A DNA stretch of 63,823 nucleotides, filler included, from Licmophora abbreviata (taxonomy: Eukaryota), in assembly GCA_900291995.1 (NCBI GenBank). It is 8 parts of 8 records of this genome, joined end to end, with 100 filler letters (N's around TTAATTAATTAA, not from the genome) between each part and the next. Parts side by side here need not be neighbours in the genome. Positions count along the whole stretch, not along the records: positions 33,283 to 43,946 come from OLMU01000238.1; 7 more parts are not named here. One strand, 5' to 3'. A model generated the notes under the pieces. The model saw nothing but the letters and a program-made list of their open reading frames with translations, ran no database searches and had not been told where the DNA came from. Position numbers and translations under genes: made by a program. The first letter of the stretch is position 1. Every line of letters starts with the position of its first letter. Below are positions 38,595 through 42,843 of the stretch, in pieces.

Positions 38595-41060
38595 CTACAC
38601 ATACTCCGGGAACTGGGCTTGCAGGTGCTTCGCCAAAGCGTCTTTACCAGCACCCGGATGAGTCATCATCCAATTTTCTTGCTCGTCCATTACCTCTCGG
38701 AATCCGGGACCTTTCGGTATTCTATGAAACATCTTCTTCATTTCTCCGCCATCCAGCAGAGGTTTTTGTCCCCATACGCCGATAAGTCCCAGCTGTTGTA
38801 CAGCCGCGGCGAAGGCGTCATAACGATCGATGATACCCTGTCGTGTTTCTTCTTGACTTTCGCCAACCTGAAATTTCACGTGGAAGATAGGACATGAGTG
38901 AGAGCCAAATCTTCAAGCAGAAGACTCGGAGATTGATCGTAATCAGAAACTTACCACATCGCCTTCGATGAAGATATCGTCGCTCAGAGAAACAAGCTGT
39001 TCACTCAGAGACAACACCAGCGCAGCGCGCCACAGAGGACCAACTCGGTCGATAACCTTCGACGTGAGCAAACGGAATTCCATTGCATGCGCCCACATGG
39101 GGTCATCTTCCGTCTCGCTGTCAACCTCAGATGATTTCATGCGGCATTTGAGAGTGCCACTTGCTTCGTCACCTTGAAATCTCACTTCGATTCCGCTCAA
39201 CAGAACGGACACGGCCGACAAGTCGCAACCGCTATTAATCAGATTGGTAATGTCATCTGCAGCATTCATGATTTTCCTGACGGCGTCAGCGTCTCGTATT
39301 GGCCGCTTGAGCTCGTTTGTCAGCAAGTTGCAGACGGCAGATCGGCGAGTTTTCTTCCCCGCGCGTCGACCTTGAGTCTTCGCCTGCTCAACCTTCAATG
39401 CATAATCTCGAAATGGCTTGAGGAAGGCAGCGTACCACAAGAGCCGTCGCGCTTCCTCGTCTTCTAAGAGAGACAGCTCTCGAGCTCCATAGGTGCGTGC
39501 GATTTCAGACCGCCTCTTCTCACACCACATGGGCAAATTCACCTTGCAGTCGCAAAGATAATCGTGTGCGGCAGACAAAGACGCCAATCCTTTGGAAAAG
39601 ATGACATCAGGATTCAAGACTTCGTCGGTGCATCTTCCCACTGGAAGTACTGTTTCAATCAAGTGCAGGTTTCGAAGCAACCGCATAGCTCCCACTGGGT
39701 CCGGCGACCGGAGCATCAGGTCGACCTCACCGCCGACTCGTTCTCGCGAAACTTTCTGTGCCAACGCATTGCGTACGCGAATGTCTTGAGCGGCCTCGAC
39801 CAGCGCATCATCCATGGTGAAGCGCAGTCGGGCCGCAAAACGGATCGATCTTAATACTCGAAGTGGATCGTCCAACAGAGTTGTCAGAGGGGCTAATGGT
39901 GTAGCAATTATACCGCGCTGCAGGTCGTCCAGGCCCCTTCCTGTCCAATCTTCAATCTGTCCCGTATTGATGTTGTAAAACAAGGCATTGATCGTCAGAT
40001 CTCTTCGAAATGCATCTTCAGAAGGAGTGCCGATACGCATCAAGTCGGGAATGCGACTATCCTGCGTGTACTCTTCTGCTCGCAAGTTCACAAAATCAAT
40101 CCAGAAGCTATTCACTTTCATCGTCGCCGTCTCGAGATGCTTCGACTTCTCTGGATTCTTTAGAACGACTCCTACCGACACTGTCTTCTTTCCCTGTTGC
40201 TGCAAGTACTCGTTCAGGTGATCTGCAAATTCTCGACCAAGCATGTCGTTGAGGGCAATATCAATGTCGACCGGCTGATTCTGTTCAGCATCGTTATTTG
40301 ATGCATTCATGAGAGCATCCCTCCTCTTAATCACCTTTGTCCCTTGTCGCCCCATTGACGGCTGGTGTTGCTTCTGATGACCGTGCTTCTGCGCAAATTT
40401 TGACGTCAGTCTCTGTGCTACGCCCTTCTTCCAATGATCCGTCTGGCTCAAAGACAGATCCCGCAAATGTGCGTACTCAGGTGTCGCCAAGAGCTTGTCA
40501 CGCACCCATCCACCGGCGACTCGGAGCGTCGTGCCGTCAATCCCAGTGTCTTTTACCACGTGGCGCAGCAATAGAAAGAGTTCGCGCTCCTCCTCCGTCA
40601 GCATAAGAGATGTCGACTCCTGAGACTTGGGAGGTTCCATTTTGTTATTGTTGTGGGTAGAGTACACATTACTAGAGCCACTCGAGAAGGTCGAAGAGCA
40701 TGCACCGTTGAAAGGCTTGGCACTGTCATCCTTCCTGCCATAACTGCTTCGCGGTAGGTCCGACAGGGTGCTCATAGTCGGGACAGGCAATTCGAGAGTT
40801 GCGCCGCCGCCGAAGAATCTCAATTCGCGAGACGAGAGAGTCATAGTCACACTCTTTCGCGCAATTCTCTCGTGCATCGCTGATAACGAAGTCGGTGCAT
40901 GCGAATTTCGGGGAATCTTGACGGCGGCCCGGCCGACCCGTCTGGGAGTCTCTAGAAACGCTCGGCTCTTGCAGGCGAGCCAACCGCAACATGCGGTCAT
41001 CAGTATCCGACCGCAACTGCGCCGCCGACGACGAGAATACGGTTGACCGGCGCTGCTCAT
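38595..41060 (-). CDS. CCA1: CCA tRNA nucleotidyltransferase (class II)
   Basis: LRVAGGWVRDKLL, DIDIAL, KSKHLETAT, DFVNLRAEEY, RRDLTINALFYN, DDPLRVLRSIRF. Intron 38868-38954. Start uncertain. Confidence 0.93.
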
Positions 41061-41844
41061 GAAGAGAACTGTTCGTATTTCTCAGGCTCGATACCTTTAT
41101 GGCCTCTCTCCGTGCTGACTTCAGTTGCGCGCCAGGAAGAACTTGTCCCGCGCGTTTCCGGGTTATGGCGAATCTTGTTGCGATCTGGAGTTCAACAAAG
41201 CACCCACAAAAACGTGTTTCCCAGCTGGAAGTAGGATCAACCGGACTATTCTTTACTTCGGTCGATAGGTGGAGAGACGAGGAACAGTTCGGTGTGATTT
41301 GATCCGATGGAGTCTCCCAGAAATGCCAAAAAGTGTGATGTTTGATGTGCCCATCCTGTTCGGCGGCTGATGTGTGTGAGCCAATTCTCTCCTCTGGCGC
41401 GAACACATCAGCAGAATATCATCGCCATCAGTGCCACGGTACCAGGCGCTACGTCAGTTCTACGGGACCGATCGGACATATGGACAGAAATTCGCACGTC
41501 ATGGCTTCGTTTCATCCGAGAGCGACTGACAGACGATATTGAACATGAGTGACGAAATGGACTCCTTGGAGCTACAAACGTGCTCAATCCCAAGGAGTAA
41601 TTTATCGACGAGAAGGCAGTTACACTGCCCGCTTCAAACCAGAATGTGAATGATCTGTCGACGAGTTTTCGTCGTTCTAGCTAGAGAGATACCAAGAACA
41701 CTCCAGGCAGCTACTAGTAGCTCTCTATCTAGCTAGCTACATCGTTCTTTACACGAATAATTTGTTTGCTTGTCATTTCGATACTTAAGCTCATTGCTGC
41801 TCCCAAACTTATAGTGCAAAATGTATTGGTGGGCATTGCTGAGG

Positions 41845-41850
41845 AAAAAA
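41845..41850 (-). terminator. RNA Pol III terminator (T6) of the permuted tRNA gene
   Basis: TTTTTT on the minus strand, 7 nt after tRNA position 37. Confidence 0.85.
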
Positions 41851-41857
41851 GAACGCA

Positions 41858-41941
41858 CATAAGACCACCACTCTGACCACTGAGTTACACGAGCTTCGAA
41901 AGAAGTGCTCGAGGCGAGGGTCGAACTCGCGACCAGTGGCT
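41858..41941 (-). tRNA. trnI-UAU: Circularly permuted tRNA-Ile(UAU) gene: 3' half 41941-41906, 11-nt spacer, 5' half 41894-41858
   Basis: Minus strand reads AGCCACTGGTCGCGAGTTCGACCCTCGCCTCGAGCA (nt 38-73), cttctttcgaa, then GCTCGTGTAACTCAGTGGTCAGAGTGGTGGTCTTATG (nt 1-37). Swapping the halves gives a 73-nt cloverleaf: acceptor GCTCGTG/CTCGAGC, D stem ACTC/GAGT, anticodon stem GTGGT/GCCAC with loop CTTATGA, T stem GCGAG/CTCGC with loop TTCGACC. Confidence 0.93.
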
Positions 41942-41975
41942 ATTTCAGCGTCCGTACTACAGACAGAAGGGCAAA

Positions 41976-41989
41976 TTTATGTATATAAA
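41976..41989 (-). promoter_or_regulatory. TATA box upstream of the permuted tRNA
   Basis: TTTATATACATAAA on the minus strand; TATATA starts 34 nt upstream of the leader helix at 41953. Confidence 0.65.
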
Positions 41990-42364
41990 GACAAGAGTAC
42001 GACCCAATTCCACTCGCTTTCTCTAGAGGAGATCCACCCTCGCATTACTCCTTCTTAAGAAACAAACTACTCAGGATTCGAAAGAAACTGGACAGTCAAT
42101 TTGCTTATATCGTTCGAATCCAGAACCGGTAGAACGGCCTACTCAGACTGTCCTGAATCTATCTAAAACCGCGGCCGGTACGACCGAATAGTTCACGAAA
42201 GCAAAGGGGTACACCGCATTCACGACATGTAAAATTCCGGATTCCTCTCGCGCTTCTCCAGCAGCGTCTCCACCGCCGCGAGACAAAAGAGGAGACACGA
42301 GACACTGCAGACACAGCCACGATAAGCCATCGATCGTCGACCGCTTTGCCCGTAGCTTCTACCA

Positions 42365-42843
42365 ATGGTAAGTCGCTTTTGCTGTTATGCCAGTGCTCAG
42401 TCCATGTACTAGCGGCGCTGTGGTGGACGACATGTTTCAGATGTTGCCGAATGACGATCTGTCCGACTCTGCACCAGGTGGACTGCCGCCTTGCCCAGGC
42501 GCCCTCTTGCATACCGGTAGACCTGACTCAACGTACCCCGTTTTTGCCACTGCAGATTTTCTATTCCTTCTTCAAGACACTCGTGGGGAAAGAAATTGCC
42601 GTCGAGCTGAAGAATGACGTAGTTTTGACGGGTACCTTACATAGTGTTGACCAGTATCTGAATGTCAAGTTGCTGAATGTTAAAGTGGTGAATCCAGAGA
42701 AATACCCGCAGCTGTGCTCTCTTCAGAACTGTTTTGTTCGTGGTAGCGTTGTACGGTATATTCAAATACCTCCTGAACACGTCGATACGGAACTCTTGCA
42801 AGACGCAGCGCGGAAGGAGAATGCACCTGCGAAAAAGAAATGA
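42365..42843 (+). CDS. LSM2: U6 snRNA-associated Sm-like protein LSm2
   Basis: First exon is only ATG, then intron 42368-42555, then IFYSFFKTLVGKEIAVELKND..GTLHSVDQYLN..CFVRGSVVRY. Confidence 0.95.

Follow-up and report, generated by a model that had tools for sequence, protein, structure and literature searches.

Permuted tRNA genes have been recorded for Cyanidioschyzon merolae, four prasinophytes, the nucleomorph of Bigelowiella natans and Thermofilum pendens (PMC3978253; PMC4033280; PMC13578239) and, in a preprint, for the trebouxiophyte Auxenochlorella (PMC12633428), as far as the available text of these sources goes. According to the accessible sections of the Soma 2014 review (PMC3978253), most eukaryotes are without such genes, and type II genes, with the junction at 37/38, belong to Ostreococcus, Micromonas and the B. 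natans nucleomorph (Maruyama et al. 2010, via PMC3978253). For C. merolae (Soma et al. 2007, via PMC3978253), the same sections describe RT-PCR evidence for all three expected RNAs, namely, the linear permuted precursor, a circle that keeps the intervening sequence and the mature, CCA-tailed tRNA.

An earlier note on the DNA described here could cite no permuted tRNA gene from diatoms or other stramenopiles. Our literature search, which covered article texts, likewise found no report from these lineages, and none of a permuted Ile gene. In the available text of the Soma 2014 review, Ile is absent from Table 1 and the term 'Ile' occurs once, in reference to C. merolae tRNA-Ile(GAU) (PMC3978253). 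The accessible part of the PlantRNA 2.0 article covers two annotated heterokontophytes and mentions permuted genes for rhodophytes only, and the corresponding part of the first PlantRNA paper makes no remark on permuted genes. Against this background, we present a locus that is very likely, judging from its sequence, to be a functional circularly permuted nuclear tRNA-Ile(UAU) gene of type II (37/38) in a diatom-affiliated alga. The supporting evidence that was computed directly comprises gene order, the cloverleaf, the geometry of a bulge-helix-bulge (BHB) motif, conservation and covariation.

Layout of the locus and identity of its host

The locus lies on the minus strand of the window, by which we mean the whole 63.8-kb stretch of DNA that was analysed. 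It consists, in this order, of a tRNA 3' half of 36 nt (A38 to the discriminator A73; 41906..41941), a spacer, or intervening sequence, of 11 nt (41895..41905) and a tRNA 5' half of 37 nt (G1 to G37; 41858..41894). The two halves are defined by sequence, ARAGORN, covariation and a covariance model, and the spacer by sequence. The 3' half contains the 3' strand of the anticodon stem, the variable loop, the T arm and the 3' strand of the acceptor stem, with no CCA encoded after A73, and the 5' half contains the 5' strand of the acceptor stem, the D arm, the 5' strand of the anticodon stem and the anticodon UAU, so that the spacer closes the acceptor stem as a loop. Upstream, a TATA-like element, TTTATATA, can be read in the sequence at 41982..41989 (positions -48..-41 relative to the 3' half) and, by analogy with C. 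merolae as described in the available text of PMC3978253, may be a promoter element. Between this element and the 3' half lies a putative leader (41942..41965), delineated by a pairing script together with a cognate/non-cognate control. The 5' half is followed by a 7-nt trailer (41851..41857), delineated by the same script, and by a run of six T residues (41845..41850), which starts 7 nt past G37 and is likely to be an RNA polymerase III terminator. The arrangement of TATA box, leader, 3' half, spacer, 5' half, trailer and T6 that the earlier note had proposed for 41845-41989 proved exact to the base. Equally sound was its assertion that swapping the halves restores a 73-nt tRNA free of gaps and duplications: once the 5' half is moved in front of the 3' half, ARAGORN recognises tRNA-Ile(tat), 73 nt long, with zero bases lost or repeated.

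The consensus elements U8, G18G19, U33 and the T-loop TTCGA are all readable in the sequence, and the four stems are intact except for one flaw in the acceptor stem, a U6.U67 mismatch that is family-wide. Position 37 is occupied by G, which is unexpected in a tRNA reading A-starting codons. Of the Ile codons that 14 long window ORFs contain, 12.4% are AUA, so that a decoder is needed. Thermodynamic folding is uninformative and lends no support to the proposed fold (z-score -0.25; -26.9 kcal/mol for the proposed structure versus -34.2 kcal/mol for the MFE structure, which is not a cloverleaf), as is common for tRNAs.

In its native order, the gene escapes the scanners. ARAGORN calls zero tRNAs, whether in the entire window, which is also devoid of a second tRNA by this program, or in the native 201 nt of the locus, and Rfam gives zero matches at gathering thresholds. 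The conventional tRNA model (RF00005) reaches 16.7 bits, versus a gathering score of 29, on the 5' half plus unrelated downstream sequence. This invisibility, anticipated in the earlier note, is shared with the genes of Auxenochlorella (PMC12633428) and T. pendens (PMC3218864; PMC3978253), the reversed halves of which are missed by tRNAscan-SE according to the available text of these sources. Unlike the window gene, however, those of Auxenochlorella are green algal and those of T. pendens are archaeal, with junctions at 59/60 and an encoded CCA.

As a chance control, the identical swap was applied to 5000 random 84-nt segments and produced two ARAGORN calls, indicating that ARAGORN on its own is permissive. 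An exhaustive scan of the window tested each position of either strand, allowed a spacer length of 0-30 nt and applied a four-stem prefilter ahead of ARAGORN. Two candidates passed the prefilter, and only the 41858-41941 locus was called as a tRNA.

The genes encoded in the window include those for MCM, RFC1, gamma-tubulin, RPC5, ATG11 and AMP deaminase, a content that marks it as eukaryotic and nuclear. The named matches to gamma-tubulin are ten diatoms (74-79% identity), one member of the Parmales (78%) and one entry labelled Camelus, and the top matches (86-87%) carry no taxon name. Among the best 120 matches to a CCA-enzyme-like protein, all seven named ones are diatoms (53-61%), with the best match lacking a taxon name at 71%. 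The gamma-tubulin tree is weakly supported, with 8 of its 13 inner forks below support, and the window groups only with two sequences lacking taxon names. Judged by these neighbouring proteins, the host is a diatom-affiliated ochrophyte, not a prasinophyte or a red alga, and the diatom nuclear genome suggested earlier agrees with the prevalence of diatoms among the named matches. The gene downstream of the tRNA locus (38943-41060, minus strand), the start of which is about 800 nt off, encodes a 705-aa protein with a PolyA_pol head and RNA-binding domains, relatives of which are named as CCA-adding tRNA nucleotidyltransferase. That a gene for a tRNA-finishing enzyme adjoins a tRNA locus is probably a coincidence.

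The candidate gene has much in common with the type II genes of prasinophytes and B. natans, as far as the available text describes them, including the position of the 3' half upstream of the 5' half, the 37/38 junction, a leader-trailer motif of the BHB type, an AT-rich upstream region, the lack of an encoded CCA and a presumed circular intermediate. It differs from them in its diatom-affiliated stramenopile host and in its isoacceptor, Ile. With the permuted genes of C. merolae, it shares a TATA-like sequence less than 50 bp upstream, a downstream T-stretch, an intervening sequence free of signals and a BHB at the junction, whereas the C. merolae junctions occur at four different positions and several of the genes have extra introns (available text of PMC3978253). 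The Ile(UAU) gene of C. merolae, unlike the permuted gene of the window, is collinear and has three introns (accessible part of PMC9602550).

An environmental family of permuted Ile(UAU) genes

A scan of metagenome contigs with a degenerate 5'-half pattern recovered at least 119 stretches. The 121 pattern matches listed were reduced by a stem filter to 32 candidates, window included, and six of these (L004, L037, L042, L044, L048 and L086) were dropped as ordinary A37 tRNAs located behind another tRNA. The permuted layout is shared by at least 25 genes on at least 24 metagenome loci, the window being extra, and at least 22 distinct cores exist besides that of the window. All listed family genes carry G37 and are called as Ile(tat) by ARAGORN once swapped. 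Among the matches listed, the 3' half measures 36 nt (38 nt in L100), the spacer 4-14 nt and the 5' half 37 nt, and the anticodon loop C-U-U-A-U-G, which includes G37, is invariant together with A38. The spacers of the listed family genes are shorter than those of green-algal genes, which measure 11-64 nt in the available text of PMC3978253.

The cloverleaf drawn across the swapped halves was assessed in an alignment of 23 cores in native order. Of its 483 cells, 93.0% are paired, as opposed to 32.5-49.7% in a control with slid partners. Nine of the 21 pairs are altered on both sides, and none of 500 shuffles of this alignment reaches any of five measures. Covariation is seen in all variable stems, and the compensatory changes extend to the anticodon stem, the strands of which are located at the two ends of the gene, and to the acceptor stem, the strands of which flank the spacer. 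A covariance model (R1), built from 22 metagenome genes with the window left out, has a single match in the window, at 41858-41941 on the minus strand (94.6 bits, E 1.6e-24). On the listed loci, full-length members score 81-103 bits and non-members at most 54 bits, with two members clipped by contig ends at 63 bits (L071) and 45 bits (L002).

These results bear on the concern that the locus might be an assembly artefact, might represent ordinary tRNA-Ile genes with introns whose tandem array was collapsed, or might have come about by chance. A permuted gene can indeed be mimicked where the 3' half of a gene stands before the 5' half of its neighbour, and tRNA-tRNA junctions in arrays account for R1 scores of up to 54 bits. 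Yet each half is present once in the window in a search allowing up to three mismatches, so that the locus does not belong to a tandem array, and a check for the collapsed array considered in the earlier note accordingly turned up no second copy of either half. The exhaustive scan of the window yields this locus alone, and the identical order recurs on at least 24 metagenome loci that were assembled independently and that show T-runs right behind the 5' half as well as pairing of leader and trailer. An origin by artefact, array or chance is barely credible in the light of these observations.

Among Rfam models, the gene in its native order is matched best by YrlA (RF02553; 28 bits, E 0.0022; 41847-41958, minus strand), a resemblance explained by a tRNA-like module in which T arm, acceptor and D arm follow one another as they do here, with nothing further in common. 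It raises the question of whether the locus specifies a tRNA-like RNA without a decoding role, one that serves in the permuted linear form, like the bacterial YrlA module, and is never rearranged. However, the match is far under the gathering score of 69, YrlA is bacterial whereas the window is eukaryotic and nuclear, and the invariant anticodon loop with A38 is split exactly at 37/38 inside a BHB, which is sensible only if the ends are cut and joined. We consider an RNA of this kind highly unlikely and favour a tRNA gene. Sub-threshold YrlA matches could serve as an inexpensive pointer to permuted tRNAs when eukaryotic genomes are screened.

Two members of the family, L025 and L115, have a divergent LSM-domain ORF in common with the window (42157-42840, plus strand), with 88-90% amino-acid identity, and their leaders are recognisably similar to that of the window. 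On this shared gene neighbourhood, the two loci are identified as syntenic orthologues of the window locus, and it is their synteny only that ties family loci to the lineage of the window. Nine flank ORFs of family loci yielded zero Pfam families.

Among the matches listed, the U6.U67 mismatch occurs in 18 of the 23 family cores and C3.A70 in 10 of the 23, and U6.U67 is also present in the collinear relative L119. Possible explanations for these acceptor mismatches are easier opening of the spacer-closed stem, tRNA identity or C-to-U editing at position 3. The 120 Ile(UAU) pattern matches listed comprise 46 with G37 and 74 with A37, and G37 is found in collinear eukaryote-like genes as well (L015, L019, L090, L024, L039, L033, L104, L114 and L119). 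Two of the latter, L114 and L119, have a canonical 37/38 intron and resemble the window gene in the D arm, the anticodon loop with G37 and the cut site, but their halves are in the normal order and their intron is in one piece (31 and 24 nt, respectively), with no split into trailer and leader. Under the model in which permuted genes originate when a gene is duplicated in tandem and the outer halves are then lost (available text of PMC3978253), collinear genes of this type plausibly represent the ancestral layout.

Several loci show further peculiarities. On one 2.2-kb contig, two permuted Ile(UAU) genes (L047:400-479 and L047:558-639, minus strand) are located about 160 nt apart, each with a separate leader, trailer and T-run. 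L006 and L020, which are the same in sequence, carry a degenerate permuted copy upstream of the 5' half, with an apparent short duplication in the T-arm region; R1 matches this copy at two places, with 46 and 53 bits, and either a pseudogene or a variant form with an additional insert may be at hand. A 35-kb contig bears a collinear Ile(UAU)-like gene (L029:350-456, minus strand) that ARAGORN leaves uncalled; this gene has, within the T arm, an A/T-rich insert that may be a non-canonical T-loop intron, as in red algae and cryptophyte nucleomorphs. Finally, a look through sequencing runs listed six entries from three studies, all with small shares and none of them RNA, and among contigs from four runs, none of the window's organism spans 41804-42540. 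In one of these runs (X6), from a separate marine metagenome study, only 31 nt of the window 5' half were matched on a 400-nt contig, which, by eye, runs on into a spacer and the end of a 3' half that both differ from those of the window, and looks like a further permuted copy from another organism.

Leader, trailer and predicted processing

Pairing between the leader and the trailer was checked with a coordinate script, all positions being on the minus strand. In the window, the anticodon stem (5 of 5 bp) is surmounted by a 3-nt bulge composed of leader AU (41943-41942) and A38, a central helix with 3 of 4 bp, a second 3-nt bulge composed of U36, G37 and the trailer U (41857), and an outer helix with 6 of 6 bp between trailer GCGUUC (41856-41851) and leader GGACGC (41953-41948). 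Within the central helix, nt 32-35 are opposite leader UGAA (41947-41944), with C32.A unpaired. The usual cut in a BHB falls between the second and third bulge nucleotides. Applied to both bulges, this geometry would place the cuts after G37 and before A38, exactly at the junction required. The cut position is thus an independent prediction from the pairing, one that goes beyond the earlier note and coincides with the 37/38 break claimed there.

Flank statistics were obtained for 25 loci with distinct flanks, window included, among the matches listed. The leader has the consensus Y-A-A-G at positions -6..-3, complementary to C32-U33-U34-A35, and the central helix has 3-4 of its 4 pairs in 24 of the 25 loci. 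A strict outer helix, with at least four contiguous pairs straight after the 5' bulge, is found in 12 of the 25, with offset helices elsewhere, a pattern to be set against the hBH motif of green algae in the available text of PMC3978253. The six contiguous pairs of the window make the longest strict outer helix among the listed loci, tied with L058. Within the same set, cognate leader-trailer duplexes have a mean energy of -9.59 kcal/mol versus -6.27 kcal/mol for non-cognate ones, with 0 of 5000 random assignments equalling the cognate pairing, and the cognate trailer ranks at the top for 8 of 24 leaders, including that of the window (first of 24). These comparisons indicate that leader-trailer pairing is under selection. 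A run of at least four T residues is located 5-46 nt downstream in 24 of the 25 listed loci, no such run occurs within the 23 listed cores, spacers included, and a TATA-type hexamer is present at most 80 nt upstream in 11 of the 25.

In one respect, the window departs from its relatives: leader position -3 is A, whereas it is G in the other 24 of the 25 distinct family loci among the matches listed, and it is this A that puts C32.A in place of the anticodon-intron pair. This pair, in which nt 32 is matched with the base that precedes the 3' splice site by 3 nt, is needed by eukaryal endonucleases for the 3' cut; in the window, C32 faces A. Loss of the G would impair the 3' cut, and the family could accordingly be real and functional with the window copy being a decaying or weakly processed paralogue, the tRNA being supplied by another copy in the genome. 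Several copies per genome do occur, as in the case of L047. Decay is, however, difficult to reconcile with stems that are intact apart from the family-wide 6.67 mismatch, an intact TATA box and T6, an outer BHB helix as long as any strict one among the listed loci and an R1 score typical of members. Furthermore, pair 28-42 is U-A in the window versus G-C in the syntenic orthologue L025, with both sides changed (pair 27-43 is G-C versus G.U), indicating that the halves stayed complementary since the lineages split. We regard a decaying paralogue as unlikely and retain the functional permuted gene as the preferred reading.

For such a gene, RNA polymerase III would start about 25-30 nt downstream of TTTATATA and stop at T6. 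The resulting transcript of about 105-120 nt would fold into a tRNA body with the acceptor stem closed by the 11-nt spacer, and the leader and trailer would pair as a BHB on top of the anticodon stem. The tRNA splicing endonuclease would then cut both bulges, after G37 and before A38, and tRNA ligase would join G37 to A38, generating an 84-nt circle from which RNase P and tRNase Z would remove the spacer, followed by CCA addition. We infer that the gene is transcribed, that the circle forms, which enzymes take part and that the tRNA reads AUA, and the identity of the processing path is proposed by analogy, from the feature-by-feature match to known permuted genes as described in the available text of PMC3978253. 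Trl1-type ligase homologues have been reported from diatoms (accessible part of PMC4090602), which makes a 5'-phosphate ligation route plausible. Because the leader pairs with the anticodon much like a canonical intron, the Ile(UAU) anticodon could, by analogy with yeast, still receive a modification that depends on an intron.

Meaning for diatom tRNA gene sets

What appears to be new here, on our literature search, is a permuted tRNA gene in a stramenopile lineage and the Ile isoacceptor, the kind of gene itself being already known. Permutation thereby gains both a new isoacceptor and a new group, the stramenopiles, which count among the foremost primary producers of the sea. The finding also bears on the question of repeated origins of permutation versus its spread along with endosymbionts. 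Given that ARAGORN and Rfam miss the gene, diatom genomes may be credited with no tRNA-Ile(UAU), an error that may also pass into codon-usage or tRNA-adaptation models. The family, moreover, offers a natural series of BHB variants for the question of how eukaryal endonucleases handle permuted substrates.

A bolder proposition, which we put forward tentatively and with slightly more doubt than conviction, is that diatoms, and perhaps other ochrophytes, depend on the permuted gene alone for the tRNA that reads AUA, the gene having become fixed at an early stage and persisted while the lineage radiated widely. If so, it would stand as the first case of an essential permuted tRNA maintained throughout a major lineage of eukaryotes, and it would have either arisen separately from those of red and green algae or been acquired by way of an algal endosymbiont. 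An apparent lack of tRNA-Ile(UAU) in diatom annotations would then be explained, and the U6.U67 and C3.A70 mismatches would mark a special processing or editing need of the circular intermediate.
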